Virus record (IMG/VR): IMGVR_UViG_3300031132_000335
Direction: 5' to 3' (one strand)
Length of the DNA stretch: 64,000 nt
Origin: an uncultured virus (IMG/VR IMGVR_UViG_3300031132_000335)
Taxonomy: Duplodnaviria > Heunggongvirae > Uroviricota > Caudoviricetes
Positions 13,309 through 62,211 of the stretch are shown here, in pieces. Every line of letters begins with the position of its first letter. Position 1 is the first letter of the stretch. The notes under the pieces are model-generated. The model saw only the letters and a list, made by a program, of their open reading frames with translations, was not told the DNA's origin and ran no database searches. Both the position numbers and the translations under genes were made by a program.

Positions 13309-13839
13309 ATGGCTGAACTTCCTCCTCAGTTCCACATCACATCCCGTGGTGAAGTGGATAGCTGCGATGCTCGTCGTCGTCCATGTCCTCTTGGCGGACA
13401 GCACTATGACACAAAGCAGCAGGCAGAGGAAGCGAACCTGTTGAAGAAGCAGGTGGAACAGCGTCTCCGTGAGCGCAACAACACGATCAACTGCAACCAA
13501 GAACGCCAGGTAGGAACTCGTCAGTTCATCAGCGTCAGTGACCGTCTCCGTCAGCAGGGAGTGAAAAGCATTCTTCGTACGGAACGCCCACAGGAGCAGT
13601 TCCTCCTCACCATGCAGGATGGCCGCAAGTTCTTCTTAGAACTGGAAGAGATGCCTCGTACCCACCAAGACAACATGGCTAAAGGAGTTGTCGCTAGCCC
13701 CGAGTTCACAGCAGAGTTCGGTCAGTTCAGCCGGTCTTGGACGATGCAACCAAAGATGCGGTTCGTAGACCGGTTACATCAGCAGCTCCTGAACGCTCGC
13801 TTCTTCTCCGCACCGGTCAGAACACCCCAACTGGCGTGA
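13309..13839 (+). CDS. HCCH N-terminal module + unknown C-terminal domain
   Basis: FHITSRGEVDSCDARRRPCPLGGQHYDTKQQA. Confidence 0.7.
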   Translation: MAELPPQFHITSRGEVDSCDARRRPCPLGGQHYDTKQQAEEANLLKKQVEQRLRERNNTINCNQERQVGTRQFISVSDRLRQQGVKSILRTERPQEQFLLTMQDGRKFFLELEEMPRTHQDNMAKGVVASPEFTAEFGQFSRSWTMQPKMRFVDRLHQQLLNARFFSAPVRTPQLA

Positions 13840-13908
13840 GCTCCTACAGTTTCTGCGAGCTCTCTACCCCCTAACTCTTCTTCTTTTTGAAATGAGCCCA
13901 TCTCCATC

Positions 13909-14925
13909 ATGACTAAGTACCACATCTCTACCTCCGGTGAGCCCGTCCTATGCGAGGCAAGGATCAATCCTTGTCCTCGTGGGCATTTCGCTACGAAGCA
14001 GGAAGCTCGTGATTCTGAGCTGTTCAAAAAACAGCTGAGTTCACACTTGAAGACATCCGTTCCAGCTAGCCGGTCAGCCGGGTTCTCTGATGAAGAGCTG
14101 CGTAGCCGGTTGACTGGGATGAAGAAAGTTGATGCTAAAGAAGTTCAAGACCTTCTAGATGAGTTCAACGATGGCGGAGACCGAGTGTTTTTACCAGGCT
14201 CTCTTCGTCTCAACAATGCAAGGAAGTCCGTCATCGGAAGCTTCACCGGCATTGAAGATGGCCGGCGATATGAAGTGCAGATCACTGCGGGGAAGTTTTT
14301 GATGGTGTACGACAGCTACGAGAACGATGATGAAGATGAAGAGGCATTCCTGACTGAGGCTCGCGCGAAAGTCAGCAGAGAGATGGAAGAACTGGACTAC
14401 TCTGAGACCATTACCCGCCCTGGTCAGGAAGGATGGGAGACCGATGTGGTGGCTGACAACCTGTTCCAGCTCATGGAAGACGTGCAGGATGGTCGTGACT
14501 GGAACCATGACACAGGAGCTGCGGAGTTCATGTACTTCGGGGAAGCCTTCTCCGACATCAACATGAACCTGCGTAACGGTGACCGTCTCAATAAAAACTT
14601 AGTAGCTACACTGGATAGGTCAATGGAAAAAGACACGCTGACTGAACCTGTGACCGTATACCGTGGTGTACGGATAAGTAACGAGGCAACTCGTCAAAAG
14701 TTAGTCAGTGGAAGCTACTCAGACCCTGCGTACTTATCAACGTCCACGGATGAGCAGACAGCTCGGAGCTTCGCTGGTGGTGGGAAGCGGCCTGGGTTAG
14801 TGATGAAGCTCACATTGCCTGCTGGTACACAATGCCGTGACCAACGCGATGATACAGAACAAGAAATCACGCTTCCTCGGAATTTTGACCTGTCCTCAGC
14901 GGAATGGATTGCAATAGGGGAATGA
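13909..14925 (+). CDS. HCCH module + VIP2-like ADP-ribosyltransferase
   Basis: YHISTSGEPVLCEARINPCPRGH; INMNLR, VYRG, YLSTS, EQEITLPR (R-S-E ART). Confidence 0.85.
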   Translation: MTKYHISTSGEPVLCEARINPCPRGHFATKQEARDSELFKKQLSSHLKTSVPASRSAGFSDEELRSRLTGMKKVDAKEVQDLLDEFNDGGDRVFLPGSLRLNNARKSVIGSFTGIEDGRRYEVQITAGKFLMVYDSYENDDEDEEAFLTEARAKVSREMEELDYSETITRPGQEGWETDVVADNLFQLMEDVQDGRDWNHDTGAAEFMYFGEAFSDINMNLRNGDRLNKNLVATLDRSMEKDTLTEPVTVYRGVRISNEATRQKLVSGSYSDPAYLSTSTDEQTARSFAGGGKRPGLVMKLTLPAGTQCRDQRDDTEQEITLPRNFDLSSAEWIAIGE

Positions 14926-14926
14926 G

Positions 14927-14972
14927 AAAAGGGAAGAGGCGCTACCGCATCTGGTAGCGCCTCTTCCCTTTT
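14927..14972. terminator. bidirectional terminator between convergent genes
   Basis: AAAAGGGAAGAGGCGCTACC/GGTAGCGCCTCTTCCCTTTT. Confidence 0.8.
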
Positions 14973-14979
14973 GCTGAAA

Positions 14980-15261
14980 TCAAATCCAGCGGTCGTCCGT
15001 CTCATCCTCACGCCCGAGCGCGATGTACACCTTACGAGTGACGTTCGCGGAAACTCCGCCACCAGCAGCGACGCTCCACAGGAGGTTGCGGAACTGGTCT
15101 GCACGCTTCTGAGCCTGGGCCTGGTGCTTGTTCTCTGCCGTCAGGATGGCCACCAGGCGGTCTTCCGTCTCCTGGTCGTACCCGAAGCGGGCGTAGGTCT
15201 GTCGGGCGACTTCCAGAGCTTCCTGGGCCTGCTCAGCGGTGGTCTTGATGATGGTAGCCAT
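14980..15261 (-). CDS. hypothetical protein
   Basis: SD AAGGAGAG; TTGACA promoter. Confidence 0.7.
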   Translation of the reverse strand: MATIIKTTAEQAQEALEVARQTYARFGYDQETEDRLVAILTAENKHQAQAQKRADQFRNLLWSVAAGGGVSANVTRKVYIALGREDETDDRWI

Positions 15262-15424
15262 TGGTTCTCTCCTTGACTGGGATGAAGTGATGAGCGGTCT
15301 CTCTTTCCGCCTACTCTTTGATCCTACTACCTCTGTTGCAGGTGTGTCAACAGCATCAGGAAATTCTCAGACTGTAACATCAGTCGGGGAAGGACGAGAG
15401 ATTCCTCTTCCTTCCCCGACTGGT

Positions 15425-15697
15425 TCAGTGCGCGTTGATGAGGAGCATCGGCTTCTCAAAAGTCTCATGCGAGTCCATGAGGAGGAAGAGGTTCGCCTTG
15501 TTGGTGTTGATGTTCAGGAGGTAGTTCACCACGGTGTCAGCCTTCTTGATGACGATGTGCACGTCACCATCAGCGTCACGGAGCAGGTCCCAGTTGTTCA
15601 GGTCCATGACCTCACCGTAGTTGTGGATGAGCGGTGCTCCATCGTTCACGAGTTCCTCATAGGAACGGTAGCGGGGCTGAGCGATTGCGGTTTCCAT
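15425..15697 (-). CDS. hypothetical protein
   Basis: SD AAGGAGAG before METAIAQ. Confidence 0.7.
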   Translation of the reverse strand: METAIAQPRYRSYEELVNDGAPLIHNYGEVMDLNNWDLLRDADGDVHIVIKKADTVVNYLLNINTNKANLFLLMDSHETFEKPMLLINAH

Positions 15698-15824
15698 GTG
15701 TCTCTCCTTTGTCTTCAAGGCTTCTCTCCGACCTTGATGAGTACAGGCTATCAGAGGCCACCGACATCCGAAAAAGAAAGAGAGGGGAGTGCGCAGAGAA
15801 CAATTCTGCGCACTCCCCTCTCTT

Positions 15825-16190
15825 TCAGATTCCCTGACGTTCCGAGTGAGTTAGAAACTCCGAAATATCCCAGTTAAGCTTGACATCCTGGATGAACGTA
15901 AGCATTGCATCCCCGAACAAAATTTGAAGAGGGAGCAGGCCAGGGATGACTACGGTACCACGGTTGGTGAGAAAATCGTACTCCATCTGCACGAACACGT
16001 GACTGATGCGGTCAGGAATATACTCGTACAGAATAGGCCAGTCTTCCTTCAACGGCCTCGTAGGAACATTGAAGGTGTTGATGACGAGCTGCGGAGTCGG
16101 GGATTCCAGAGTAAGAAGGTTATCCCCGCGAATGAACTGCTTCTTGTACATACGCTTTCCAATGGTTGGAGGATGTTGATTACTTGACAC
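15825..16190 (-). CDS. hypothetical protein
   Basis: ORF ending at a hairpin; start uncertain. Confidence 0.5.
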   Translation of the reverse strand: MSSNQHPPTIGKRMYKKQFIRGDNLLTLESPTPQLVINTFNVPTRPLKEDWPILYEYIPDRISHVFVQMEYDFLTNRGTVVIPGLLPLQILFGDAMLTFIQDVKLNWDISEFLTHSERQGI

Positions 16191-16203
16191 CCTACACTAT
16201 GGT

Positions 16204-16470
16204 TTACTCCTGCGCAACAGGTTCCAGATTTCCAATGAACTGACTGTTGAAGCGGTGCATGTCGTCAGGGTCTCGCATGGTTTCTACTTCAATGATTTCC
16301 CACTGTGCAGTGTTACCTGATTGCATATCAACAAGGAGCACGTCTCCAACATATAATCGCTGCTCATTGAAAGCAAAGCCACTCATCTGAGCTTTCTCCC
16401 TATTAATTTCAAGCATCTGTAAGGAGTAGCCCCAGCGGCGCTTGGCGGTGGAGTAATCGTACACAGTCAT
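16204..16470 (-). CDS. hypothetical protein
   Basis: SD GAGGGG. Confidence 0.65.
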   Translation of the reverse strand: MTVYDYSTAKRRWGYSLQMLEINREKAQMSGFAFNEQRLYVGDVLLVDMQSGNTAQWEIIEVETMRDPDDMHRFNSQFIGNLEPVAQE

Positions 16471-16620
16471 GGTTGTCCCCTCTTGTTCTGTATCACCTCA
16501 GTATACACGAGTAATATTTCTGATGTAAGAAAGTAGAGATAGGCTGGTAGAAGGACGCAAAAGCTATTCTGATCTGGGATTTTGGTTGATTTTGTCAGTT
16601 GGGTATGATATACTAAGCTT

Positions 16621-17049
16621 ATGATTGACTTCAAGATGCAGGATGACACGCTGACAAAGCGACAGGCTGAGTACCTCCACTTGGTGAGCTATGCACAGGA
16701 CCGCGTTCTCAGCGCTTCATTCTCAGATGTAGCTCAGGCGAAGGCTGAGTACGAAGCGCTGGTGAACCGCGCTGATGAGTTCTTCGGTGAAGGTACCATC
16801 AAAGAGTCAGAGAAGGCCATGTCATACGGCTGGATGCTGGACACGTTGAGCCAGGAAGTTCTCAGTGCTGTACACTCAATGGTCGCTGCTCGGGATGCTG
16901 GGAGTGTTTCCGAGTTTACCCAGTACGCAGACTACTACTCTCTCTACCTGTGGGAGGACAAGGCTCTCAGCAAGTACATGATTGGTTACCAGCCTGCTGA
17001 GTTCTTTACTGACGACGAATACCGTGAGGCTGTCAAAGCATTCGGATAA
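16621..17049 (+). CDS. hypothetical protein
   Basis: Leaderless TATACT-N6-ATG. Confidence 0.7.
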   Translation: MIDFKMQDDTLTKRQAEYLHLVSYAQDRVLSASFSDVAQAKAEYEALVNRADEFFGEGTIKESEKAMSYGWMLDTLSQEVLSAVHSMVAARDAGSVSEFTQYADYYSLYLWEDKALSKYMIGYQPAEFFTDDEYREAVKAFG

Positions 17050-17109
17050 AGACATGAAGAAGCCCTCCTCTACTTTTTGAGAGGAGGGCTTCTTCATGAG
17101 TATCAGGAC

Positions 17110-17529
17110 TTACAGGTCATACTCGTCCAGTGCCGAGACCTGGTGGTCACGGTCCAGCTCAAACGTGTACTTGACGTTCTCAGCCCCGTACTTACCAACA
17201 GCGAACTCGTAGAAGTCCGACCAGACAGTGCCGAGACGGAAACGAGCAATCTCAGCCCATCCGTCCAGCTCACGCATGTGCAGAACGTACTCACCTCCAA
17301 GGAGTGGAATCTTGCCATCCTCCTCGGTGTAGACCTTCACGCTGCGTCCCAGGAAGTCATCATGCTCCTCAATCGGAGCGTTCTCTGCCACGTCAGCGAC
17401 GAAGACGAGGATTTCCTTTGCGCGCTCGGGAGTCTCTGCCTCAACGAAGACCTTACGGTTGTCCTTGTCTCGCGTGGTGTAGATGCTCTTGCCTGCGAGC
17501 TTACGGGTCTCTTCTGCCATGCTTACCAT
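17110..17529 (-). CDS. hypothetical protein
   Basis: SD GAGGAG. Confidence 0.7.
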   Translation of the reverse strand: MVSMAEETRKLAGKSIYTTRDKDNRKVFVEAETPERAKEILVFVADVAENAPIEEHDDFLGRSVKVYTEEDGKIPLLGGEYVLHMRELDGWAEIARFRLGTVWSDFYEFAVGKYGAENVKYTFELDRDHQVSALDEYDL

Positions 17530-17660
17530 TGGATTCTCCTCATTGGTTGGTCAAGAACTGAATGTTTTGAGGCTATCACGTCTTTGAATCTTCGTCAACC
17601 AGGTTCGCTCTGTATCGGAGGACTTTTTCTACTACTTCACGATTAGCGAAGCTAAGGGTG

Positions 17661-18026
17661 TTAGAGGATGCGAGCGAACGCATCCATAGCGATGAGGTAG
17701 TCCATAGCCTGGGTGTAACCAGCGATGAAGAACTCACGGGTCATGCGGTACTCAACCGTGGCGAGGTTGCTCGCGCTGCCACCAGCGTAGAAAAGGTCCC
17801 ACGTGGTAGCGGCAAGGGCGCGGAACTCGCGGTTCGTACGGTGGGCGTTTACCCCCGCATCGTTGAAATTCAGAAGAGCAAGAAGGTAGCCATCCTTGTA
17901 GCCACTGGTGGCTGCATCAGCGAGAGTGTCGCCCATGCCTGCAAAATCCGCACGGAATGTCGCTTTGAAGTCATCCCATGCCTTGTTGGCAATGTCCGTC
18001 ATCTGGGTTTGCGTGTAGCGGGTCAT
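17661..18026 (-). CDS. hypothetical protein
   Basis: SD AGGAGG; TTGACA promoter. Confidence 0.7.
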   Translation of the reverse strand: MTRYTQTQMTDIANKAWDDFKATFRADFAGMGDTLADAATSGYKDGYLLALLNFNDAGVNAHRTNREFRALAATTWDLFYAGGSASNLATVEYRMTREFFIAGYTQAMDYLIAMDAFARIL

Positions 18027-18102
18027 AATACCCTCCTAATTGGCGTTCCTGTCTTGCTTGTATGTTTATCATAGCACACAGATACGCGAAGGTGTCAACC
18101 TT

Positions 18103-18255
18103 CTACGACAGATTAGGGTTCTGTGGGCGTTTGTCTTCCGCCTCAGAGTAGCTTAGCTTCGCACTCTGGATAACTTCGTACGGAAGCTGCTTCCCTGACA
18201 GGCGAGCTAAGGCAACACGCGCTTTCGCTCGCGCAATCTGTTCAACGGTCACCAT
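18103..18255 (-). CDS. small protein (50 aa, not in ORF track)
   Basis: SD AGGAG; MVTVEQIARAKARVALARLSGK... Confidence 0.55.
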   Translation of the reverse strand: MVTVEQIARAKARVALARLSGKQLPYEVIQSAKLSYSEAEDKRPQNPNLS

Positions 18256-18325
18256 TAGTATTCTCCTGCCCATTAATGCTTATTGCCTGAGGTTAGCATA
18301 TTCACTAACCTCAGGCAATAAAAGC

Positions 18326-18619
18326 TTACTCGTAGATGACCTTCGTGACGGTCTTCGGGAAGACCTCGCGCGGGGCAAGGATGTCAGCCGAAGTCTGGTC
18401 GTAGAAGTTGTAGTCACCAGACCAGTGAATCCACTGGAAGACAATTCGGACGAAGCGGCTGTCAGGAGTACGAACGATGACACTGTGCAGGTCTTCGTGT
18501 TCCTCAGCTGAGATGAGTTCCGTCTGCACAACAGTGTAGCCGTCCAGCTCCTGGTTCCCATCACGGAGGTTCATGCGGTCCAGAACGTGGAAGTCAATGT
18601 CCAGAGTTGCGGTAGCCAT
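18326..18619 (-). CDS. hypothetical protein
   Basis: Paralog of 18744-19022 (VRT.D..APREVFP..YE). Confidence 0.7.
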   Translation of the reverse strand: MATATLDIDFHVLDRMNLRDGNQELDGYTVVQTELISAEEHEDLHSVIVRTPDSRFVRIVFQWIHWSGDYNFYDQTSADILAPREVFPKTVTKVIYE

Positions 18620-18743
18620 GTGTTGTGTCTCCTTCAAAAAGTTCGGCAAGATGTTTGCCTGTATCCAGTGTAGGGGTTCTCCCACTACCTGTCAACCAGG
18701 GAACCTGAGTTTACGCTGAGAGACTCAGGTTCCCTGGTTCAGC

Positions 18744-19022
18744 TTACTCGTACTGCTCAAAAGGGAAGACCTCGCGCGGAGCGAAGTCAGCAGCCAGCGG
18801 AACTCCGAAATCAATGCCCTCAAAGAAGTCGTAGTCATCAGTGTCGGTGTTCCACGAGAAGTGGATGAGGAAGTAACGACCCTCATCAGTGCGGACGACA
18901 GACGTGTAGAGCCAGTCACTCTCATCTGAGAGGACGCTGTTTGTCATCGTCATGTAGCCGCCGTAAGTAAAGCCCTCCTCCGTGAGGTTCAGCTGACTCA
19001 CAGTTGCGAAATCCAGACGCAT
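18744..19022 (-). CDS. hypothetical protein
   Basis: Paralog of 18326-18619. Confidence 0.7.
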   Translation of the reverse strand: MRLDFATVSQLNLTEEGFTYGGYMTMTNSVLSDESDWLYTSVVRTDEGRYFLIHFSWNTDTDDYDFFEGIDFGVPLAADFAPREVFPFEQYE

Positions 19023-19104
19023 GTTCATTCCTTCAAAAATTGATGATGAGCAGTTGCTCGGATCAAGCCTACATATAGCAGACTCACTTGTCAAGAGATG
19101 GTAT

Positions 19105-19491
19105 TTACGCTGCGGCAGCGTCCAGAACCTTCTGAACCCAGTCAGCTGGTTCCTCACCGTGCCAGAGACTTTCATTGGAGATGCTGGCTCCACCGTCTGC
19201 CCATGAGCAAATGAAGACGCTTCCGTCCCAGTTGTATTCCTCAACCAGGTCTTCCACATCAAAGACACCCTTCCAGCGCTCAGTCCAGGAATCCTCATCC
19301 CAGAGACCTTCAATGTCCAGAATCTGGCCGTCAGGGGTACGGACGGCAGCGTGGACGAACTCCCAGTCTTCGGGACCAGAGACCGTCACAACGGTATAGC
19401 CAGTGGCGTTGTGAAGTGCGATGGCCAGCTCAACGCAGTCACCGCGAGTGAACGCTTCAACAACGTTCTCGGGGAAAGAGAAGTGCTTCAT
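19105..19491 (-). CDS. putative Cys-His-Asp protein
   Basis: FPENVV.AFT.GDCVELAIAL..VHAA..LDIEG; paralog of 1433-1831. Confidence 0.6.
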   Translation of the reverse strand: MKHFSFPENVVEAFTRGDCVELAIALHNATGYTVVTVSGPEDWEFVHAAVRTPDGQILDIEGLWDEDSWTERWKGVFDVEDLVEEYNWDGSVFICSWADGGASISNESLWHGEEPADWVQKVLDAAAA

Positions 19492-19611
19492 GATGACTCC
19501 TGGGATGGTCTTGGCTGGCTGGGTTGTGTTCAGCGTACATGAAAATGCCTGAGCCTGCAACAGATTCGTTGCAGGCTCAGGCAAAAGACAGGCTACTTAC
19601 AGGTTGAGTGA

Positions 19612-19980
19612 TTAGTCCTGGTTGGTCAGACGCTCAATCTCAGGCTCGTTGTTCGGAGAGATGCCCACAGACCACTCAGTAGTGGAGTTCAGCAGGAGTC
19701 GCAGCACCGTCGTGGAGTCAGTCCATTCCAGTTCATCATCCGTCAGAGCAGGAGTGTGCTTGATGATGGCGCTGTACGAGTTCCCCTCAACATCCGAGTT
19801 GGGGAGAACCGCTACCAGCTCGTGAACACGAATCAGCTGGTAACCCTTCGTGACCAGGAACTCGCCCTCGTACTCAGTGTCACGGGAGGTGTACCCAGCG
19901 TTCAGGAGAGCGATGTGGACCCTGTTCAGGTTCTGCTCGTCAGTGAAGCTCAGAGAAAGGGTTGCGCTGTCGGAAATCAT
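19612..19980 (-). CDS. hypothetical protein
   Basis: SD GAAAGG; typical codon usage. Confidence 0.65.
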   Translation of the reverse strand: MISDSATLSLSFTDEQNLNRVHIALLNAGYTSRDTEYEGEFLVTKGYQLIRVHELVAVLPNSDVEGNSYSAIIKHTPALTDDELEWTDSTTVLRLLLNSTTEWSVGISPNNEPEIERLTNQD

Positions 19981-20056
19981 GGTGATGCCTTTCATTGGAA
20001 GAACAGGTGTGAACCCAGGCTACCACATAAAGAAGCGCCTGACAACAGGGGATTGT

Positions 20057-22103: not shown

Positions 22104-22186
22104 GCCTTCTTGGTGGAATTGGTAGACGCGCTTGACTCAAAATCAAGTTCCCAAAAGGAGTGAGGGTTCAAGTCCCTCAGGAGGCA
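22104..22186 (+). tRNA. trnL: tRNA-Leu(CAA)
   Basis: Acceptor GCCTTCT/AGGAGGC, D-loop GGAATTGGTAGAC, anticodon arm CTTGA-CTCAAAA-TCAAG, long variable arm, GGTTCAAGTCC; CCA not encoded; TTGACA..TAGGCT promoter upstream. Confidence 0.95.
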
Positions 22187-22229
22187 CAAGTCATCAATCA
22201 CTGCACTACCAACCGAAAGGTGTAACGCA

Positions 22230-23557: not shown

Positions 23558-23728
23558 GATGTGTTGCCTTTCAATGCGGATGGTGTGTTACTGATCTTAC
23601 CGAGTAATCGGATGAACTGCCATATTCCTAACGACTTCCTGTTACCCGTTTTCAGGGGACAAGCACAAAAGAGGAGGGAGGAGCAAGCCATGAAAATGCT
23701 TGCTCCTCCCTCCTCTGGATGAGTCAGG

Positions 23729-47131: not shown

Positions 47132-48202
47132 ATGTCCACAACACATCCTTCCCGTAAATACGTCACCTTAGATGATGTCCGAGCTACATACGACCGGAAG
47201 AACGATTCCATTCATCTCACCTCTGGAGACCCAGACGTTCAAGCCGGCGGATTCCACATCAGTTTGAACCGCGGCACACAGACGGAGAAAACACTCCGTG
47301 AGCTCCTCACAGATGAGGGAGTCATCAAAAACAAGTGGATTCTGTCCGCAGCTCCGGGCTTCCAGCCTCGTGCAGTTGTTCCTCAACGGAATGATCGGGG
47401 AGCCATCATCGCTCTTACCGGTCGCGGTGGGTCAGGCAAGACAACCGCTGCTATCCTCCTGGCACAGAGCCTTGGAGAACAAGGCCACAAGGTCGCTTTA
47501 GTTGACTTTGACCTCCGCGATGGGCAACTCAGTTATTACCTCACGGTCAACAGCCCAAGTATTTTGAACATGTATGTAAATAGCGGTGAGAATCTTGACC
47601 GTAAAACCCTTGAGCGCAGCCTTGTGCGCGCTCCTGGAACAAGGTTCTCTGCTTTGCTAGCCCCGAAGAATGGAAAAGGAGCTGAACAAATCTCGCAGCG
47701 GTTACAGCAAGATACCCTTATCCTCTTACAACAGATGTTTGATTACGTCATCGTTGACACAGCAGTCTCAATTAGACAGTGCGATCCCAAAGCTCCTGGA
47801 GCAGCTTTGTACAACATTGCTGACTCATTCCTCTATCTTATGTCTGGGACAAGATTAGAACAGGCTGATTATGTGCAGTGGCATAACGTTATGCAAGAAG
47901 AGTTTCGGTTTGATCCGAGACAATTAGGTGTTGTACTGAATCGTCACACTACCGAAAAAGTAACCAGCCTTGCTGGAATTTTTGGACGAGATGTAACACA
48001 GACTCCTGTGGAGACGCTCCGCGCACTTCCTCGTCACATTGTTGCACACACCCCTTTGGACTTGAAAGCCGTAAAGGCAGCTCTCAACGGAGACGAGGGA
48101 TTGTTTTCCATTTTGAAAGACAGAAACTCCCCTGTCACGAAAGGTATTCATCAGCTCAGCTTGGTGATTGCTGACCGCTTCAAAGTAGAAGACGAAGCGT
48201 AA
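47132..48202 (+). CDS. ParA/MinD/CpaE-like ATPase with extra N-terminal domain
   Basis: Deviant Walker A GRGGSGKTT, LVDFDL, FDYVIVDT, VLNR. Confidence 0.85.
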   Translation: MSTTHPSRKYVTLDDVRATYDRKNDSIHLTSGDPDVQAGGFHISLNRGTQTEKTLRELLTDEGVIKNKWILSAAPGFQPRAVVPQRNDRGAIIALTGRGGSGKTTAAILLAQSLGEQGHKVALVDFDLRDGQLSYYLTVNSPSILNMYVNSGENLDRKTLERSLVRAPGTRFSALLAPKNGKGAEQISQRLQQDTLILLQQMFDYVIVDTAVSIRQCDPKAPGAALYNIADSFLYLMSGTRLEQADYVQWHNVMQEEFRFDPRQLGVVLNRHTTEKVTSLAGIFGRDVTQTPVETLRALPRHIVAHTPLDLKAVKAALNGDEGLFSILKDRNSPVTKGIHQLSLVIADRFKVEDEA

Positions 48203-49842: not shown

Positions 49843-50100
49843 TTAAAGCAAGTCCATCTCAGCATAGACGCTCTTGCGAGGGTTCACGATGTGGATGCTC
49901 TTACCTGCGTTCTGCTCATCGTTCAAGAAGGCGTACACTGCGATAGCTCGTCGGACCGTTTCCGTAACAGAAAGACCTTTCTCGTCTTTGAGGCCCTTCA
50001 ACTGTTCTGTCGTCTCTGCATTCATCATCACACTCAAACGAGTGAGTGGTTCTGGCAGAGAACCTTCTGGATCAACTTCTGACTCATCAACATCCATCAT
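49843..50100 (-). CDS. ribbon-helix-helix (CopG-like) protein
   Basis: TRLSVMMNAETTEQLKGL...GLSVTETVRRAI. Confidence 0.7.
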   Translation of the reverse strand: MMDVDESEVDPEGSLPEPLTRLSVMMNAETTEQLKGLKDEKGLSVTETVRRAIAVYAFLNDEQNAGKSIHIVNPRKSVYAEMDLL

Positions 50101-50211: not shown

Positions 50212-51015
50212 TCAGTTACGGTGCGGGTCTCCGAAGAAGTCTTTCACGCGGAGCTTCGTACGTTTCCCGTCAGCTCCCCACCAGACAACACCTTCAATGC
50301 CGCGTTCTTTGTAACCGGCGAAGATGCTTTTCAGCTGCTCAAATGCTTGTTCCCTAGGAACTGTACGCATGTCAGGAATCTCCACAGCCGCATCATCACC
50401 ATGGGAGAGAAGCTTATGGGAGGTAAGGCTTTCAGGGTTTCCGTTGATTTTGGGCCCGCAGAGTTCGTACGTTCCAGGAGTCAATGTTTGACCAGCAGAT
50501 GCTTCCTTGAACATTTTAGCGAAGCCTGACTGTTCCACTGGCTCCAAGCCGAAGGTGTTCCCTGTGTAGGAGTCAGTTTCAGCTGGGATGAACCCTGCTG
50601 GGGCGTTCTTTCCTCGGCGGACCATACGGCGAGCATAGATGGTTCCGTCATCAGCGACTGTCACGCTTGTCCCGTCACGTTTGATGGTGGCTCGTGCTGG
50701 TTCGTCAAAAATCCAGGCAGCTGCTTCATTGATGTCAGTAGTGGCAATGTGAGCTTCCCGGTCAATGACGAACAACGCGGGCATTTTCTTTACGTTCCGG
50801 TATTGCTCATCATGGACAAACGCATCTGCATGCTTTTCAACAGACTGCTTCATGTTGTGATCCGCTGATGTTGCAGCGATTTCGGCTTTGAGTTTCTGTG
50901 CTGTCTTCGCTTCTTGGAAGCTTGAGTAATGCTCACGTGGGCATGCTCGTTCGTTTGCGCCACATGGGACAGGTTTTCCTGATGAGCTGATGTGGTGCTT
51001 CTGTGCGGTAGGCAT
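50212..51015 (-). CDS. HCCH module + RNA ligase (DUF5565/RLIG1-like)
   Basis: HHISSSGKPVPCGANERACPREH; KRDGT, TYELCGPKINGNP, EGVVW, terminal KL. Confidence 0.75.
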   Translation of the reverse strand: MPTAQKHHISSSGKPVPCGANERACPREHYSSFQEAKTAQKLKAEIAATSADHNMKQSVEKHADAFVHDEQYRNVKKMPALFVIDREAHIATTDINEAAAWIFDEPARATIKRDGTSVTVADDGTIYARRMVRRGKNAPAGFIPAETDSYTGNTFGLEPVEQSGFAKMFKEASAGQTLTPGTYELCGPKINGNPESLTSHKLLSHGDDAAVEIPDMRTVPREQAFEQLKSIFAGYKERGIEGVVWWGADGKRTKLRVKDFFGDPHRN

Positions 51016-51073
51016 AGGTTGATCCGTTCAAAAAATGAGGTTGTTCTTTCATCCTCATCTCTAACGAATCAGC

Positions 51074-55303: not shown

Positions 55304-55321
55304 CAGGCTAAGGAGAAGGAC

Positions 55322-55774: not shown

Positions 55775-55779
55775 CACCT

Positions 55780-56229
55780 ATGTCCCAAGCCATTATGAAA
55801 CGATCCGAGCAGGTCAAGCTTTCCCAGCAAATTGACCAGGAGATTATCTCGCTGCTGACCGAAGCTGATGTTCCTGTAGATATCAATGAAGTGTTGGAAA
55901 CCGTAGCACAGCGCGTGCATCGCATCTCAAATGATGTCGTCTCTACCCTGTCGAGCGGGATCGCTCGGAAAACCTACCAGTGCGATTACACCAAAGGATG
56001 GGTGTTCATTGACGGAGCTGACGAGCGGAACGAACTCCGTCAAAAAGTTCTGGAGCAGGAGCTTACTCGCCAAGGTGGGACTGCTGACATGCGCGAACTG
56101 ATGAAGGCCACAGTCAGCAAAGTAGACGACAAGCAGAAGCTGGTCAGTTCTTTTCTCCTGGGTGTGAAGCAAGGCAAGTTCAGCGTTGATTACTTTGAAG
56201 CGCAAGTCAGTCTGCTGCGCTCAGCCTGA
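55780..56229 (+). CDS. hypothetical protein
   Basis: Paralog of 55322-55774. Confidence 0.7.
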   Translation: MSQAIMKRSEQVKLSQQIDQEIISLLTEADVPVDINEVLETVAQRVHRISNDVVSTLSSGIARKTYQCDYTKGWVFIDGADERNELRQKVLEQELTRQGGTADMRELMKATVSKVDDKQKLVSSFLLGVKQGKFSVDYFEAQVSLLRSA

Positions 56230-56364
56230 TTCTGTAGAGGCATCGGAGGAAAGACAGGCTGAACTTCTTCGCTCTGCCTGTTGCATGTTCGTCCCTGAAC
56301 TGTTACTCTTGAACTATCAAGCGGATCAGAGACACTGACCTGCGTCTTTTTCAAGGAGAACATC

Positions 56365-56889
56365 ATGGCTGTTTTGGTTATTGACGGAATGCGAGTTGCC
56401 TCAGGAGCTTCTTGGGGTAACCGTCGCACCCGTACCCGCCAGGAGTTCTTCACGCTGACGCGTTCCAACCGTCAGTTCGTCGTTCGCTCCACCCACCGCG
56501 CAGAGCAGCGCTTCCTGGCGGAGGCGGAGTTCGTGGCGTTCTTCCGTTCCACGTTCGGTGGATGGCGTGCAGAAATCCTCGCCGCTGAGGCTGAGCAGGT
56601 GCGCCGTGAGGCTGCTGAGCGTCAGTACGATGAGGCAGCGGCGTTCAACTCCTTCCTGGACCAGGTGGTTGCCGCAGGTATTGCTACGCAGGAAGAGGCT
56701 ATCCGCTTCACTCTCGGTGTAGCTCGTGATGCGGCTGAGGTTGCTGAGCAGCGCGGCTATGAGCGTGGTGAGATTGACGGTTATGGCCGCGGTTACGAGC
56801 AGGGTTCTGCACGTGACGAGTATGCAGTCCACGGCGTTCACGACGATGAGGACTTTGACTACCACCAGTGGGAGACTGAAAACTGGTGA
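56365..56889 (+). CDS. hypothetical protein
   Basis: Paralog of 57048-57563 (NRRTRT..EFFTL.R.NRQFVV, FFRSTFGGWR). Confidence 0.75.
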   Translation: MAVLVIDGMRVASGASWGNRRTRTRQEFFTLTRSNRQFVVRSTHRAEQRFLAEAEFVAFFRSTFGGWRAEILAAEAEQVRREAAERQYDEAAAFNSFLDQVVAAGIATQEEAIRFTLGVARDAAEVAEQRGYERGEIDGYGRGYEQGSARDEYAVHGVHDDEDFDYHQWETENW

Positions 56890-57047
56890 GCCGTAGCACC
56901 TGATGAGGAGGGCCTTGACATGACGTTGAGACCCTCCTCATTTTTCTTTTCGTCAACTGGTTGACAAGATCGTATCCAGTCTGTACACTGGTGATATCAG
57001 GGCTGGGAAGAGAGACCCCGCCCGCTAACTTTTCAAGGAGAGAAATC

Positions 57048-57563
57048 ATGCCTGTTGTTGTTGACGGTCACCGTCTTATCACTGGTTCGTCCTGGTCAAA
57101 CCGTCGTACCCGTACGAACCGCGAGTTCTTCACGCTTCGCCGTCAGAACCGTCAGTTCGTTGTGTCGTCTACCCGTTACGGTCGTGGGCAGTCGTTTGCT
57201 GATGAGGCTTCTTTCTCTGACTTCTTCCGTTCCACGTTCGGTGGATGGCGTGATGAGGTTGAGGTTGCTGACGCGCAGGAACGTGAGCGTGCGGCTGCTG
57301 TTGCACGCCAGGAGGAGCTGGACCGTCAGCACGAGGAGGCTATCCAGCTGAACGACTTCCTGGACCGTGTGGTTGCTTCTGGTGCTGTCTCCTTGGAGGA
57401 GGCTGTCCGCTTCACCGCTGGCTTCGCTCGGGAGGCGGCTGAGGTTGCTCGTCAGGCAGGCTATGATGACGGGCGTAGCGACGGCTATGACTCGGGTTAC
57501 AACGCTGGTTGGGAGTCCGCTTCGGAGGACCACTACTGTGAGCATGATGACTACGACTACTGA
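57048..57563 (+). CDS. hypothetical protein
   Basis: Paralog of 56365-56889. Confidence 0.75.
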   Translation: MPVVVDGHRLITGSSWSNRRTRTNREFFTLRRQNRQFVVSSTRYGRGQSFADEASFSDFFRSTFGGWRDEVEVADAQERERAAAVARQEELDRQHEEAIQLNDFLDRVVASGAVSLEEAVRFTAGFAREAAEVARQAGYDDGRSDGYDSGYNAGWESASEDHYCEHDDYDY

Positions 57564-57656
57564 TTGAGGTCGGTAGAAATGAGGGTGCGACTTCTTGAAT
57601 GAGGTTGCACCCTCATTCACGTATTCAGCAGATATTTTACAGTGGAGGTATTGATC

Positions 57657-57815
57657 GTGAAGCATTCAGGTATGGTGACGTTTTACGCACGCACAGGTTA
57701 TAAGGGAGTCTGCTCGTGCGGGTGGAAGGGAAAGGACGTAAGCGTTCAGAAGGATGCAGCAAAGACGCTGAAAGTGCACTTGTACCCGAAAGCACAAGTC
57801 AAATACGCTGCGTAA
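57657..57815 (+). CDS. small Zn-finger-like protein (not in ORF track)
   Basis: SD GGAGG, GTG start; H...CSCGW...H. Confidence 0.55.
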   Translation: MKHSGMVTFYARTGYKGVCSCGWKGKDVSVQKDAAKTLKVHLYPKAQVKYAA

Positions 57816-57869
57816 AAACTAAGGAGGGGAGTTACAGTAACTGGTAGCTCCCCTCCTTTATCTCTGCGC

Positions 57870-58259
57870 TCACTCCTGGTTCAGGAACCTGAACTGGGAA
57901 CCACCCTCAGTGTAGTATTCCTTCTGCATCATACGAAGACCCGTGTTCATCACGTCATCCTGTGCGACTCCAACCTCCACAGCGATGAAGAGGCTGTCCT
58001 CATCCAGGAAGTACACATCAAACGTGGTCGCGTCAGTAGCGTTCCGAATGGCGAACAGGGCGTACTCAACAGGAACGAGGTCCTGCTGGTACTTCACCAC
58101 ATGCAGGTCCTCACGGAACTTGGAGACAACCGCATCCACGCTGCTGTGACCGAGGATGATGCGAGCAAGGTGGCGGGTGTCGCTACCAGGGGTCTGCTCA
58201 ACGTACTCCTGGTACAGCCCGTGTGCGGTGTACGGAACCTTGTCGTAATCAAGGAACAT
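57870..58259 (-). CDS. hypothetical protein
   Basis: SD AGGAG. Confidence 0.7.
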   Translation of the reverse strand: MFLDYDKVPYTAHGLYQEYVEQTPGSDTRHLARIILGHSSVDAVVSKFREDLHVVKYQQDLVPVEYALFAIRNATDATTFDVYFLDEDSLFIAVEVGVAQDDVMNTGLRMMQKEYYTEGGSQFRFLNQE

Positions 58260-58383
58260 GGGGTTCTCCTGTGGTTGGGTGATGGTTGAACTACGATCAG
58301 TCTACACAGTATCTGCGGAAACGCAAGCCTACAAATAGAAGGAAGCTCCACAAGACAGGTTTCTTGTGGAGCTTCCTTGTGTC

Positions 58384-58797
58384 TCAGGCTTCCTGGATAC
58401 GGATGAGGCGGTTAGAACGGTCCGTGGTGGTGTCCGTCACGCCTTCCTTAGAGACAGTGGTGATGCTGGTGAGGTCCCGAGTAGTGGTAACATCAGTCAC
58501 TTCCCAGCCCTCATGGTAGATGTGGTCGCCAACCTTCACCTGCTCAGCACGGATAAGGTTCGGCTCTTCCACGAAAGTAACGTCTTCCGCCTTGTAGCCT
58601 GCACGGGCGCGAATGGTGAACTTGTTGTGAGCGTCGCAGTCGTAGAGGGAGTAACCGTTGTCTACGGCCAGACCAAGGTACACCCGACCTTCATGGAGAA
58701 TGACCTTCGTGATGGTGTTACGAAGATGCAGGCCCAGCTTGTCTCCAACGCGGAGCTGGTCTGCGCGGACTTCCTGGACGGCGGTCATTGTGGTCAT
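58384..58797 (-). CDS. hypothetical protein with internal repeat
   Basis: VRADQLRVGD / IRAEQVKVGD. Confidence 0.7.
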   Translation of the reverse strand: MTTMTAVQEVRADQLRVGDKLGLHLRNTITKVILHEGRVYLGLAVDNGYSLYDCDAHNKFTIRARAGYKAEDVTFVEEPNLIRAEQVKVGDHIYHEGWEVTDVTTTRDLTSITTVSKEGVTDTTTDRSNRLIRIQEA

Positions 58798-58963
58798 GAT
58801 GTCTTCTCCTTGTTTAAAAGTTGACTGTCTACATCAGCATACACGGTATGAACAAGATGCGCAACTCTTTCTCATTTTTCTTTTTGTCTTCTTGACAAGA
58901 ACTGCGGCTTGGCATAGCTTAGGGGATAAGACATCAATCCGCTGATAAAACGAAAGGTTCATC

Positions 58964-59221
58964 ATGAGTAAGTTCCAGAAAATTCTGTACGGCATCATGG
59001 GTATTGTCGCTGTTGCAATGATTAGTTTCACCGTCTACGCGTATGCAGTGCAGGGGTATGACGCTGGTCATCGCATGGTGCACTTAACAGGAGCTGCCCT
59101 TATTCTAACCCTCGGTATTGACCTCATCGTGATGATGGTTGAGTTCAGACAGAAGGAAGCTCAGAATGCCACTCCTCTCCTGTTTGAATGGGATGAGGAT
59201 ACGAATACGGTTAGTCTGTAA
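58964..59221 (+). CDS. membrane protein (2 TM)
   Basis: Hydrophobic helices; SD GAAAGG. Confidence 0.65.
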   Translation: MSKFQKILYGIMGIVAVAMISFTVYAYAVQGYDAGHRMVHLTGAALILTLGIDLIVMMVEFRQKEAQNATPLLFEWDEDTNTVSL

Positions 59222-59352
59222 TGCCTATTCGTCAGGAAGTCAAAGGGACAAACCATATGACTTCCTGACGAATTTTAAATTATTTTCCAAACATACCCCC
59301 AAAAGAGGGTCATGCTACCGATACTTTCTTCAACACAATGAAGGAGGGCATC

Positions 59353-59547
59353 ATGTCATTTGAACCAGCAGTTGAGAAGCTTCCAACGGGAGCCATCGTT
59401 ATCATTTCAGGTGAGTATCAACCAGTTGATGAGCGTGGGAATGAGACAGAAGCCCACACCACATTTTTCGGGTTCGGGGAGACTACTCCTCAGCTTGGAC
59501 ACACAGCAGAGTGGAAGCTTGCGGAGGCTTTTGACTTTGCCGCCTAA
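59353..59547 (+). CDS. hypothetical protein
   Basis: SD AAGGAGG. Confidence 0.6.
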   Translation: MSFEPAVEKLPTGAIVIISGEYQPVDERGNETEAHTTFFGFGETTPQLGHTAEWKLAEAFDFAA

Positions 59548-59627
59548 TCCTTAGGGCGTATGGAGTAGCGAGAACGAAAATGAGGGGCGAACCAGAATCA
59601 AATGGTTCGCCCCTCATTTTTTTGTAT

Positions 59628-60179
59628 TCAGGAGTGGTACAAGAATGCTACCTTGTAGCGGTCGTGAATTGCATTCGGCTTCGGACGGGAAGTGCGCACT
59701 TTGAAAGAATTCGTAGTATCCACGCTCGTCGGAACATAGAAAATCAACTCGGAGTCATCGCACCCAAGACGAAGCAGCTCCTGGGTAAGGGCGCGCTCCA
59801 CATTCGGCAGAGCATTATTCGCCCATTCCAGACCAAAGTAACGCGTCGCGTTGTTACGAGTTGAGGAAATTGCTGCGATGTCTTCCTCTGACAGTTCTAC
59901 CGAAACCTCATGAACGGTGACAATGGTGTCTTCATCTCGGCATACTCGGAGAACAATGCTCTGACCATCAGCCAGCAGAGTACTTTCATGGCGACCAACG
60001 TAATGCTGAGCCTGCTCAGCAGTCATCAGATTCTCAGGTCCGTTCACGGCTCCTGAGCGCTCATCTTCGTACACAGTGGAAGACTTTTCCCACTGCTTTA
60101 CCGCATCTTCCAGAGCATAGCTGCGCATGTAGTGATGCGGTTGATGCTGAATTGTCATTTCGACAGGGTACAAGCTCAT
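59628..60179 (-). CDS. hypothetical protein
   Basis: SD AAGGAGAG. Confidence 0.65.
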   Translation of the reverse strand: MSLYPVEMTIQHQPHHYMRSYALEDAVKQWEKSSTVYEDERSGAVNGPENLMTAEQAQHYVGRHESTLLADGQSIVLRVCRDEDTIVTVHEVSVELSEEDIAAISSTRNNATRYFGLEWANNALPNVERALTQELLRLGCDDSELIFYVPTSVDTTNSFKVRTSRPKPNAIHDRYKVAFLYHS

Positions 60180-60291
60180 GAAGCTCTCCTTTTCTCTCAG
60201 CTGCTACAGTAGCAAGAGCCTCTGACATTCCCTAACTTGTCTCAATTCTGAGACGGAATGCGAAAGTGTCTCAGAATTGAGACGAAACCTA

Positions 60292-60696
60292 TCAATAGAG
60301 GGTTTCGTAGCTATACGTTTCAATGTCATCAGCAGGCGTTCCATACAGTTTCTGAACCTTCTTGCAAGCTTCATCACCGTTCTCAGCTGCAATGTAGCGC
60401 CAAATTGAGTCTTCCCCTAGCACTAAGAACATTGTCATGTGTTCCAAAGGTGCAGGGACTTCTGACTCCACGATGGAAGCTTTGAGAACTTCCTCAATGG
60501 CTCGCTCTGTGGTCATACCATAATCCAGGTATGCATCCATGAATCTGTCTACGTCAACAAGGGCGTAGCGCTTTGGCTTCTCATTCAGATTGAGACGCTC
60601 TTCCAACTGCTGAGCAAGGTCGTTCTGTCCCATGTCTCGCAGGCGTTCTGCCATCGCCTGAGCTTCCTGCTTATCCGTTGCGTCCCGAGCCATCAT
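60292..60696 (-). CDS. hypothetical protein
   Basis: Start overlaps the upstream stop. Confidence 0.65.
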   Translation of the reverse strand: MMARDATDKQEAQAMAERLRDMGQNDLAQQLEERLNLNEKPKRYALVDVDRFMDAYLDYGMTTERAIEEVLKASIVESEVPAPLEHMTMFLVLGEDSIWRYIAAENGDEACKKVQKLYGTPADDIETYSYETLY

Positions 60697-61151
60697 GCAC
60701 GCTCCTGAATGAAACGCTCAGCGCACACCATGACCGTTTGAGCCTTCAACCCGAACTGAGTCAGAGTGTAGCTATCACTCTCCGCATAATGTGCCAGCTC
60801 TTGGATGGAGGAGAAGACGTTTAGCGCGTCCAGAGCTTTATCGCCCAGGTCAGCGATTTCCAGAAGATGGAACTCAAACTCAGGGTTGTGGTTGACCATC
60901 TCTAATGCGACCTGAGCCACCTCAGGATGCTTAGCCAGAACCTGATTCGTAGTGCCAAGGTACTGCTGGAAGGCAGCGGGAAGAGTCACGAAGTCAGGAC
61001 GAGCCTTAACAAGATTTTTTGCGTCAGCATGCAGATTTGAGACGAGCCAGTGGAACTCTTTGTCCTCCTGGATTGCGGAGAAAAGCTCAGCAAGGCTAGC
61101 TGTTGATTGATCGGAAGCAGACATAAAAATCCTTACATTTGATGATTGCAA
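60693..61151 (-). CDS. hypothetical protein
   Basis: SD GAGGAG, TTG start. Confidence 0.6.
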   Translation of the reverse strand: MQSSNVRIFMSASDQSTASLAELFSAIQEDKEFHWLVSNLHADAKNLVKARPDFVTLPAAFQQYLGTTNQVLAKHPEVAQVALEMVNHNPEFEFHLLEIADLGDKALDALNVFSSIQELAHYAESDSYTLTQFGLKAQTVMVCAERFIQERA

Positions 61152-61218
61152 TATCGCTCCTCATCATAACACATCTGCTGGGAAAAGACAACCTTGCTTG
61201 CCACGTTAGGAATCCCTC

Positions 61219-62211
61219 ATGACCAACATGCACATTGCACTCCGCGGCCCACGTAAAGATGAGTGGGTATCTTGTGACGCAAAGAAGCGTTGCCGAAACA
61301 GCCGGCTACATGTTACTCCTGAACAACTCCACGCTATTCAAGCATGGAAAGGCAGCAACACAGCAATCACTGAAAGCGATGTTCTCCATTACACGAAAGA
61401 ACTCAACTCTGGCGACCCTATTACCTTGATCGAAGCTGGACGAGCTCATCAGGAACGTGAGCGCCGGTTGCAGGAAATCCAGAAGCAGTTCCTCCCAGTT
61501 CAAAAAGTTCGTGAGAGTACCGCCCGTCAAGTTACAGCGGAGCAAGCTTCTGCTTGGGTGAACTCGCTCACTGAGGAGGAGAAGGAGGCTCTGACGGATT
61601 TCAGCCGGTGGGACTCAAACGAGACGAACCTCTACTTCTACAAAGACGATTTCCGTGAAGCGTTCGACAGTTATAACCTGCTTGCATACCCCGGTGCATA
61701 CACCTCAAAGTCTGAACCGGAGCAAATGAAGTTGATGAGAGCGTACCGTCAAAAACTTCTAGACCGTGTAGCTCATATGGATGCAGCTCTAGGTAAAGAG
61801 ACCCCATTCTCCGATGGTGTCCTGTTGTACCGAGGAGATGATGTCCCGTACACAGAAAATGAGAGTAAAGACATGCTGGAAGTCATTCGTGCAGCGTATC
61901 CGATTGGTTCCACCTACTCCCGTAGTTCATTCATGTCCACTTCATCCAATCCAGTAGTTGCTGGAGAGTTCGCTCGGTCGTTTGTGTTTGAGATTCTCAC
62001 TGACCGAGGCGGACCTATCCAGGATTTAGCTCATGTGCAACGAGAAGAGGAAGTCATCCTCCCTCGTAATGAAGAGTACGAAGTTGTAGCTGTGCACCCA
62101 AACGTAAAGTACCGCGACACTCAGTACAATTGGCGTGTGGAGACGATGGTGGAAAAAGACATCAAAGAGTACACAGTCGTGCAGTTGGTGTCCAAGCGAC
62201 TCCTGCCTTGA
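61219..62211 (+). CDS. HCCH module + VIP2-like ADP-ribosyltransferase
   Basis: MHIALRG...SCDAKKRCRNSRLH; LTEEEKEAL, LYRG, FMSTS, REEEVILPR. Confidence 0.85.
   Translation: MTNMHIALRGPRKDEWVSCDAKKRCRNSRLHVTPEQLHAIQAWKGSNTAITESDVLHYTKELNSGDPITLIEAGRAHQERERRLQEIQKQFLPVQKVRESTARQVTAEQASAWVNSLTEEEKEALTDFSRWDSNETNLYFYKDDFREAFDSYNLLAYPGAYTSKSEPEQMKLMRAYRQKLLDRVAHMDAALGKETPFSDGVLLYRGDDVPYTENESKDMLEVIRAAYPIGSTYSRSSFMSTSSNPVVAGEFARSFVFEILTDRGGPIQDLAHVQREEEVILPRNEEYEVVAVHPNVKYRDTQYNWRVETMVEKDIKEYTVVQLVSKRLLP

Follow-up and report, generated by a model that had tools for sequence, protein, structure and literature searches.

The window analysed here, a 64,000-nucleotide stretch of DNA from an uncultured virus of the Caudoviricetes (IMG/VR record IMGVR_UViG_3300031132_000335), encodes four proteins that share one short N-terminal module, called His-Cys-Cys-His (HCCH) after its conserved residues, in front of differing C-terminal domains. 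This HCCH module represents a new domain family and marks out a modular set of enzymes in phages. The family is large and uncatalogued, and its members carry the autonomous module, of about 40 residues, at the extreme N-terminus. Large phage-like elements put this one handle before many unrelated enzymes, with many such genes per genome. The conserved residues form a putative zinc site, and nucleic acid is inferred, tentatively, as the binding target.

The four open reading frames (ORFs) start at positions 13309 (+), 13909 (+), 51015 (-) and 61219 (+), and each begins with a module of the form H-x9-C-x-A-x4-C-x3-5-H. When the entire window was scanned in six frames with a regular expression, the full motif was confined to these ORFs, and the residues H, I, G, C, A, C and H are common to all four aligned N-termini. 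An initial annotation of this DNA had reported four genes with a common N-terminal motif, and its gene positions and quoted peptides were found to be exact.

Gene 13309..13839 (+, 176 aa) carries the module at approximately residues 5-48 (nt 13321-13452), with H9, C19, C26 and H32 as candidate ligands. Its C-terminal domain (about 125 aa) matches no known family in Pfam or PHROGs, and a search with this domain returned the orthologues P0001 and P0009 only. In gene 13909..14925 (+, 338 aa) the module occupies residues 1-44 (nt 13909-14040; H5, C15, C22 and H26) and is followed by an ADP-ribosyltransferase (ART) domain at residues 209-328 (nt 14533-14892; R252, S278-T-S and E318-Q-E320), which matches PF03496 (ADPrib_exo_Tox) with 38.1 bits (E=1.3e-9, cut-off 23.4). 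A second ART domain, at residues 177-299 (nt 61747-62115; R205, S241-T-S and E277-E-E279), is encoded by gene 61219..62211 (+, 330 aa) behind a divergent module with a long hairpin at residues 1-50 (nt 61219-61368; H5, C19, C25 and H31). It matches PF03496 with 55.5 bits (E=6.2e-15, cut-off 23.4) and PF01129 with 32.8 bits (E=5.5e-8). The PHROGs hits for the two ARTs are phrog_802 and phrog_3895, and by their sequences both are classed as R-S-E ARTs of the Alt/VIP2 class, the Arg, Ser-Thr-Ser and Glu-x-Glu motifs being taken here as catalytic.

The fourth protein, encoded on the reverse strand by 50212..51015 (267 aa), carries the module at residues 1-46 (nt 51015-50878) and an RNA ligase of the RLIG1/phrog_14301 type at residues 75-260 (nt 50793-50236). 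The ligase contains K113-R-D-G, which we take to be the nucleotidyl-transferase motif I (K-x-D-G). It matches PF17720 (RLIG1) over residues 177-256 only (28.8 bits, E=7.4e-7, cut-off 25), and phrog_14301 ('RNA ligase') across residues 75-260 (E=1.7e-27). Among the matches listed, the homologous phage ligases align only from residue 66-75 onward, and these ligases therefore lack the module. The calls of two VIP2-like ARTs and an RNA ligase made in the initial annotation are thus borne out by scores above the Pfam cut-offs, and its unknown domain in 13309 still has no family. Between the module and the catalytic domain lies a linker of 30-150 residues in the window proteins. This linker had been described as helical; AlphaFold2 (AF2) places a helix after the module core at residues 30-43 in 13909 and 34-48 in 61219, which agrees with that description at the level of prediction.

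A profile built from the four N-termini, a search proposed in the initial annotation, matched 437 clusters at E<=1e-3 in a set of 1.84 billion representative proteins; the matches are almost always N-terminal and precede diverse cargoes. Among the matches listed, 144 of 150 start at or before residue 7; the proteins are 46-692 aa long, and one of the listed hits (P0031) is an artefact caused by a repeat. Of 253 domains, 244 have a projected start no later than residue 8. In 172 of 244 proteins residue 5 is the first His, and in 234 of them this His lies at or before residue 10. Late-starting cases are probably over-extended start calls, because an in-frame Met is mostly present just before the module. 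A second copy of the module, itself partial, was seen in one protein only.

Conservation over the 253 domains is concentrated on the candidate ligands, with H5, C15 and C22 at or near 100% and H28 at 99%. Other conserved positions are Ala17 (99%), Gly10 (97%), Ala35 (96%), Gly25 (92%), Pro23 (91%) and Lys3 (80%), together with aromatic residues at positions 4 and 29 (94-96%) and Ser or Thr at position 31 (at least 80%), giving the consensus M-x-K-[YF]-H-I-x3-G-x4-C-x-A-x4-C-P-x-G-G-x(0-4)-H-[FY]-x-[ST]-x2-E-A. With four conserved Cys/His ligands at fixed spacing, the module is probably zinc-binding, and the zinc site proposed in the initial annotation fits the four invariant positions. The fold is confidently predicted as a beta-hairpin, a loop and a helix: the AF2 model of the 13909 module, made from a 62-sequence alignment, has a mean predicted local distance difference test score (pLDDT) of 89.5, with strands at residues 4-6 and 12-14 and a helix at 30-43. 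Over 244 sequences the core averages a net charge of +2.1, with positive values in 84% of them, and the helix behind it has a mean of -1.7. Basic residues cluster in the stretch that separates the cysteines, at positions 16 and 18-20.

To avoid circularity, a hidden Markov model (HMM) was built from 58 external module sequences, none of them from the window, and every stop-to-stop segment of the window in six frames (1,212 in all) was scored with it. Three of the genes were recovered with strong scores (13309, E=7e-19; 13909, E=1e-17; 51015, E=1e-15), and the top unrelated segment scored 8.1 bits. The 61219 N-terminus scored 6.8 bits (E=0.45), which is insignificant alone. Its membership is thus transitive only, and it is linked to the family through bridging sequences and a matching predicted fold. 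The bridges P0099 and P0122 score 24.5 and 21.4 bits against the canonical profile, and their N-termini are 42-43% identical to the 61219-type N-terminus. The 'C-x-A-x3-C-R' form seen in 61219 recurs among canonical members, and AF2 predicts a beta-beta-alpha arrangement with a longer hairpin for this N-terminus (pLDDT 81.6, from an alignment that included canonical members).

That the likeness arose by chance, or from a shared 5' DNA or regulatory cassette instead of a protein domain, is hardly credible. The insignificant external score of 61219 and a DNA motif, YGTTAGRRAT, upstream of three of the four module genes could be cited in its favour. However, conservation is seen at the protein level at just 30-50% identity, with H/C/C/H invariant in the 253 domains, the fold is confidently predicted, and the three E-values run from 1e-15 to 7e-19. 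A shared DNA cassette or promoter as the source of the likeness was also rejected directly, as a DNA alignment of the module genes has no extended nucleotide conservation. For three genes this explanation is effectively refuted.

The upstream motif itself occurs four times in the window (0.64 expected), three times directly upstream of module genes: at 13262..13271 (+), 38 nt 5' of the 13309 start codon; at 51057..51066 (-), approximately 42 nt 5' of the 51015 start codon; and at 61204..61213 (+), where it ends 5 nt 5' of the 61219 start codon and has a core (AGGA) inside that resembles a ribosome-binding site. The fourth copy is at 23624..23633 (-). Two of the three copies at module genes extend to GTTAGRRATGARGATG. 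The motif may represent a 5' regulatory element common to these genes, or else a duplication remnant.

The domain family appears to be absent from Pfam-A (2025 copy), NCBIfam 20.0, PHROGs v4 and the PDB. No Pfam-A model covers the module in the four window proteins or in 147 relatives, no PHROGs model covers it in the four window proteins, and NCBIfam has nothing on it in the four window proteins and 16 relatives. A sequence profile search of the PDB gave a single chance hit (E=0.44), and Foldseek against the PDB gave no match at E<=1e-3 (best E=1.1). The ESM Atlas returned clusters without a name (best score 0.81). The structural scores for the Kunitz/BPTI and C2H2 folds are within the range of common arrangements; the ligand order and spacing of C2H2 zinc fingers differ from the H..C..C..H of the module, and Kunitz domains are disulfide-rich and extracellular, unlike the module. 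No description of it was found in the literature, including the main texts, as far as available, of the comparative papers PMC9503650, PMC5512222 and PMC7824862. The initial statement that the motif belongs to no named family is therefore upheld for Pfam-A, NCBIfam, PHROGs and solved structures, and the earlier claims on architecture and novelty stand, with the membership of 61219 being transitive.

A constant N-terminus with variable enzymatic C-termini, the architecture recognised in the initial annotation, generalises far beyond the window. A Pfam hit (E<=1e-3) was obtained for 25 of the 147 relatives scanned, in every case behind the module, and the remaining 122 cargoes match no Pfam family. 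The annotated cargoes are ADPrib_exo_Tox (four), SprT-like (four), HD_4 (two) and single cases of ART-PolyVal, Zeta_toxin/AAA_33, 2H-SAK, GmrSD_C/HNH, NTP_transf_2, Fic, an alpha/beta hydrolase, DUF3228, DUF1642, YunG-like and LRV, with a few weak others. A second search, of which 120 of 231 hits are listed, adds through precomputed Pfam assignments RNase_T, ART-PolyVal, another Zeta/AAA_33, PF01396 (presumably a topoisomerase zinc finger) and the combination PF01743+PF12627+PF01966 (presumably a CCA-adding enzyme). The module also fronts a 922-aa superfamily 2 helicase in a related locus and a PARP-type catalytic domain in a 442-aa protein of the IMG/VR contig G003, and ART cargoes of three clades are found behind it. 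This cargo pool overlaps with those of other toxin and effector systems (ADPrib_exo_Tox, ART-PolyVal, PARP, Zeta_toxin, Fic, GmrSD_C/HNH, SprT-like, HD_4, NTP_transf_2 and 2H-SAK).

Domain sharing with and without the module was seen in one case. The C-terminal domain of a G003 module protein (L039:8112-8999) is also present in three window paralogues at 13-693, 1975-2835 and 4697-5479, and the module is thus an add-on, shuffled independently of the cargo. These three paralogues, all on the reverse strand, have a CxxC...CxxC ribbon and no HCCH module, and their conserved domain, with motifs such as W-[FY]-H-A-T and Y-L-Y-E-V, has no Pfam family; a distant ART-like fold is a guess.

The cargo is kept in all recovered orthologues (P0001 and P0003-P0009). 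Contigs from four other sequencing runs bridge the 13309/13909 locus without change, and those of X9, X11 and X16 span both genes unswapped, mostly at 95-99% likeness at this locus. The sole structural difference there is the lack of the second RNase H paralogue in run X11. Replacement of the C-terminus between strains was not seen among the orthologues or at the 13309/13909 locus. The term polymorphic, used in the initial annotation, therefore holds for the variety of C-terminal domains but not for allelic swapping of cargoes. PADLOC defence models gave no hit for the four window proteins, and for 11 relatives scanned with them the only hits were weak ones on cargo domains.

Most module relatives come from metagenome assemblies, in some cases on contigs of 100-437 kb. 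Genes of the window recur on metagenome contigs of 883,042, 881,636, 878,612 and 828,331 bp, with near-identical copies of the locus on the 883,042- and 878,612-bp contigs (L022, L023), and the window is part of an element of roughly 880 kb, which would be unusually large for one with phage-like gene content. Four copies of the module are found in the 64-kb window, six in the 88,999-bp contig G003 and one in a bacterial metagenome-assembled genome (MAG), G001. A further 19 matches lie on small contigs of 45-51% GC (C412, C415, C15 and others; L041-L051) in MAG G002, three of them in tandem on C412. This MAG is labelled Pararhizobium, and its module contigs, which consist mostly of orphan ORFs, look like mis-binned phage contigs. 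In BFVD, Foldseek matched at least 11 proteins from the uncultured 'Siphoviridae sp. ctHip2', with TM scores to the query of 0.66-0.83 and identities of 27-39%; one is named 'Zeta toxin'.

Contig G003, with a GC content of 52.8%, close to that of the window, encodes DnaB, a clamp, a UvsX-like recombinase, SSB, ribonucleotide reductase, SbcC and a Lon-like protease, as well as RNA ligases, RNase H and thymidine kinase. In the interval 73-89 kb, five of the six module genes are surrounded by genes of RNA and DNA repair, with RNA ligases, RNase H, an exonuclease, thymidine kinase and a metallophosphoesterase; a helicase gene is also found among the module genes of this contig. No head or tail PHROG was detected on this fragment at E<=1e-5, except for a weak terminase-like similarity in an FtsK-like protein. 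In a bacterial MAG, one module copy adjoins the housekeeping gene ychF. The only hits among 401 genomes of the phylum to which G001 belongs were that in G001 and a marginal match with a stop inside it.

Sequenced cellular genomes seldom carry the module. Module loci were sought with a degenerate DNA pattern for C-P-L-G-G-E-H-[FY], which matched 19 stretches in 185,579 species genomes, two of them true, and two in IMG/VR, one of them true. A megablast search with window positions 9000-15000 against plasmids and phages gave no match, and a search of IMG/VR with the window's ART gave no relative. With tblastn, P0084 had no match in the phage collection, and P0237 and P0013 matched phages through their cargo domains only, among the matches listed. 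No isolated phage with the module was found in this collection, in which ctHip2 is not included. For two window genes, most of the closest relatives in phages belong to actinophages (77 of 87 records and 15 of 25), so that an actinobacterial host is only weakly indicated: the collection is rich in actinophages, proteobacterial phages also match, and the listed phage ligases lack the module. DNA runs with the 13200-15000 stretch are labelled as phyllosphere, leaf litter, plant or surface metagenomes from more than 10 studies, and no RNA dataset with this stretch was listed.

The reading preferred here, though put forward tentatively, is that the module acts as a nucleic-acid-binding tether, a knuckle stabilised by zinc. 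It would bind DNA or RNA, possibly at ends or damaged sites, and so bring each enzyme (ART, RNA ligase, 2H phosphoesterase, kinase, exonuclease, helicase, SprT protease or nuclease) to one shared type of substrate while infection proceeds. The cysteines flank a basic loop that would contact the backbone, and the acidic helix and the linker would space the catalytic domain away from it. Tethering is favoured because the annotated cargoes are mostly DNA or RNA enzymes, because the module genes sit in neighbourhoods of nucleic-acid metabolism, and because the hairpin and the inter-cysteine loop are basic. The copy beside ychF in a bacterial MAG also favours it, as this suggests a function not tied to virions. 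Helicase, exonuclease and the presumed CCA-adding enzyme and topoisomerase zinc finger as cargoes fit tethering at least as well as packaging.

There is in addition a functional parallel with PARP1 and DNA ligase III, whose N-terminal zinc fingers serve their catalytic domains. Zf-PARP is likewise an N-terminal zinc module before an ART or a ligase; it is about 90 residues long with the ligand order CCHC, and as no sequence or detectable fold relationship with the HCCH module is seen, the parallel is one of analogy only.

Several observations weigh against nucleic-acid tethering. The net charge of the module core is only modestly basic, and the apparent bias towards nucleic-acid enzymes rests on 25 cargoes, because 122 of 147 have no Pfam family. 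The VIP2/C3-type ARTs, Fic, Zeta and the alpha/beta hydrolase are classic protein-modifying effectors. The near-absolute N-terminal position is better explained by a role in addressing or assembly, as DNA-binding zinc fingers are usually unrestricted in position. The repertoire also overlaps with those of MuF toxins and polyvalent proteins, which, in the parts of these papers available, are thought to be virion-delivered (PMC9503650, PMC5512222, PMC5576092). Because of the modest charge, the many cargoes without a family, the protein-modifying effectors and the N-terminal position, a packaging tag and a docking role on a protein hub remain serious rivals.

The first of these rivals follows the initial annotation, in which the module was seen as an address tag for a virion or transfer machine. 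The tag would load host-takeover or anti-defence enzymes into the capsid or onto packaged DNA, to be injected with the genome, and the system would parallel MuF toxins and polyvalent proteins, with one enzyme on each protein. A small, constant and strictly N-terminal module is what such a tag predicts, as is a high copy number per element (four in 64 kb, six in 89 kb, 19 in G002 and at least 11 in ctHip2). A cyanophage protein annotated as 'minor head protein / head morphogenesis' contains a homologue of the P0013 kinase cargo. The overlap with the MuF and polyvalent repertoire, as available in those papers, extends to ARTs including ART-PolyVal, SprT/zincin, Zeta, Fic, HNH, HD, NTase and helicase domains. 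However, no head, portal, MuF or protease gene recognisable with PHROGs or Pfam is fused to or adjoins a module gene in the window or G003, the neighbourhoods are those of DNA and RNA metabolism, and one copy is in an apparently chromosomal context beside ychF. To our knowledge there is no precedent for a zinc finger as a packaging signal. The address tag thus found no measurable support, and as an explanation it is fairly unlikely.

According to the accessible text of PMC5576092, MuF toxins of temperate phages resemble the module proteins in being phage-encoded, with a constant N-terminus and a variable enzymatic C-terminus, and in a repertoire of nucleases, metallopeptidases, ARTs and RelA/HD-type domains. 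However, MuF is a large head-morphogenesis domain encoded beside portal and terminase genes and occurs once per phage, whereas the HCCH module has about 40 residues, lies away from head genes in the window and G003, and is found in 4-19 genes per element. Polyvalent proteins of phages and conjugative elements (PMC5512222, as far as available) draw on the same effector pool (ART-PolyVal, zincin/SprT-like peptidases, NTases and helicases) and likely share with the module proteins a role in early host manipulation, but they combine 2-15 domains in one giant polypeptide, whereas the module proteins are separate small enzymes with the same N-terminal handle; an HCCH-like zinc module was not found in the available part of that paper. 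Packaged ARTs are recognised, in the available text of PMC9503650, by a MuF or portal fusion or by a location among head genes; the window ARTs belong to the same Alt/VIP2 class as T4 Alt and head-packaged ARTs, but have neither feature. A small zinc module is also multiplied in one very large genome in Bacillus phage G, where the accessible text of PMC7824862 describes a lineage-specific expansion of approximately 35 zinc ribbons as possible transcription factors or DNA-binding proteins. This is a different module and not an enzyme handle, and the HCCH profile has no match in the 497,513-bp phage G record. The module system is MuF- or polyvalent-like in architecture but falls outside both classes, having no known trafficking domain, head linkage or allelic swapping and no clear immunity gene.

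Docking on a protein hub is fairly unlikely as well. The module would be a protein-protein adaptor that docks the cargoes on one hub (candidates being SSB, a clamp, RNA polymerase, the ribosome and a compartment built by the phage) or lets the paralogues co-assemble into a non-covalent multi-enzyme complex. A single handle common to up to 19 paralogues per genome and tandem arrays such as the three in a row on G002 contig C412 would suit an adaptor, as would a surface conserved beyond the ligands (K3, aromatic 4, G10, P23, G25, aromatic 29, S/T31 and A35, all at least 80%), and helicase, exonuclease and SprT resemble clients of replication and repair hubs. However, no partner was found among the fragments of elements compared: BLASTP of the window against G003 and G002 recovered module genes, one cargo domain and a short ParA-related match, and no conserved companion gene. 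A more general proposal, which is doubtful on present evidence, is that the module is a universal zinc 'address' that routes up to approximately 20 enzymes to the capsid, to injected DNA, or to a phage compartment or complex. If true, such an address would do non-covalently what polyvalent proteins do in one chain, and would constitute a new type of sorting signal for phage proteins, transferable to any cargo.

As the initial annotation had noted, no recognisable immunity gene is found near the window module genes. The gene after 13309 is another module gene, and 13909 has no credible same-strand small ORF downstream. Gene 61219 is followed by a 77-aa ORF (62251-62484) without a family, and the module-ligase gene by an 85-aa ORF (49843-50100, -) on the same strand, approximately 110 nt downstream, with a weak match to RHH_1 (E=0.009). 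In MuF systems, by the text of PMC5576092 that was available, a small ORF with a putative immunity function comes after 89.4% of the toxin genes.

Many toxin-like cargoes (ART, Zeta, Fic and HNH) without an obvious immunity gene might be expected if the module were a regulatory switch or cap, zinc- or redox-sensitive or autoinhibitory, that silences toxic enzymes until a signal arrives. Cys/His zinc sites can act as redox switches, which also speaks for such a cap. However, harmless enzymes (RNA ligase, helicase and a predicted CCA-adding enzyme) carry the same module, and the 30-150 linker residues of the window proteins speak against a steric cap shared by unrelated folds. A regulatory cap is quite improbable, and together with the chance or cassette explanation it ranks lower than tethering, the packaging tag and the hub.

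Should the module prove to be a true targeting handle, a single sequence of 40 residues is enough to recognise as enzymes or effectors hundreds of phage proteins that otherwise escape annotation. It may also account for the way in which very large phage-like elements organise large sets of enzymes for host manipulation and nucleic-acid repair. For experiments, one bait serves all module proteins, which offers a simple way in.

The 13309 and 13909 genes lie directly 3' of two RNase H fusion genes and a tyrosyl-tRNA synthetase (TyrRS) gene. The fusion genes, at 11322-12248 (+) and 12292-13203 (+), are tandem paralogues (44% identical over 308 aa), each with an N-terminal region of about 135 aa without a known family fused to RNase H (PF00075). 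One X11 contig skips 12266-13247 and represents a strain without the second RNase H copy. The TyrRS gene is full-length (9379-10761, +; PF00579, 2e-76; phrog_9270, 3e-134), and a tRNA-Leu(CAA) is encoded at 22104-22187 (+); such translation genes are typical of very large phages. No PHROG of the head-and-packaging category was detected in the window at E<=1e-3.

A third ART-type gene, at 7336-7749 (+), has no module and belongs to the Arr-ms-like rifampin ADP-ribosyltransferase family (PF12120, 7.7e-10). A ParA/MinD-type ATPase (PF01656, PF13614) is encoded at 47132-48202 (+), and its presence in the element hints at plasmid-like or phage-plasmid-like partitioning. Approximately 90% of the called ORFs in the window have no Pfam family, and the element is rich in duplications and orphans. 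Other sets of tandem paralogues are found at 3268/3794/4268, 5801/6554, 18326/18744, 23729/24347, 55322/55780 and 56365/56961.

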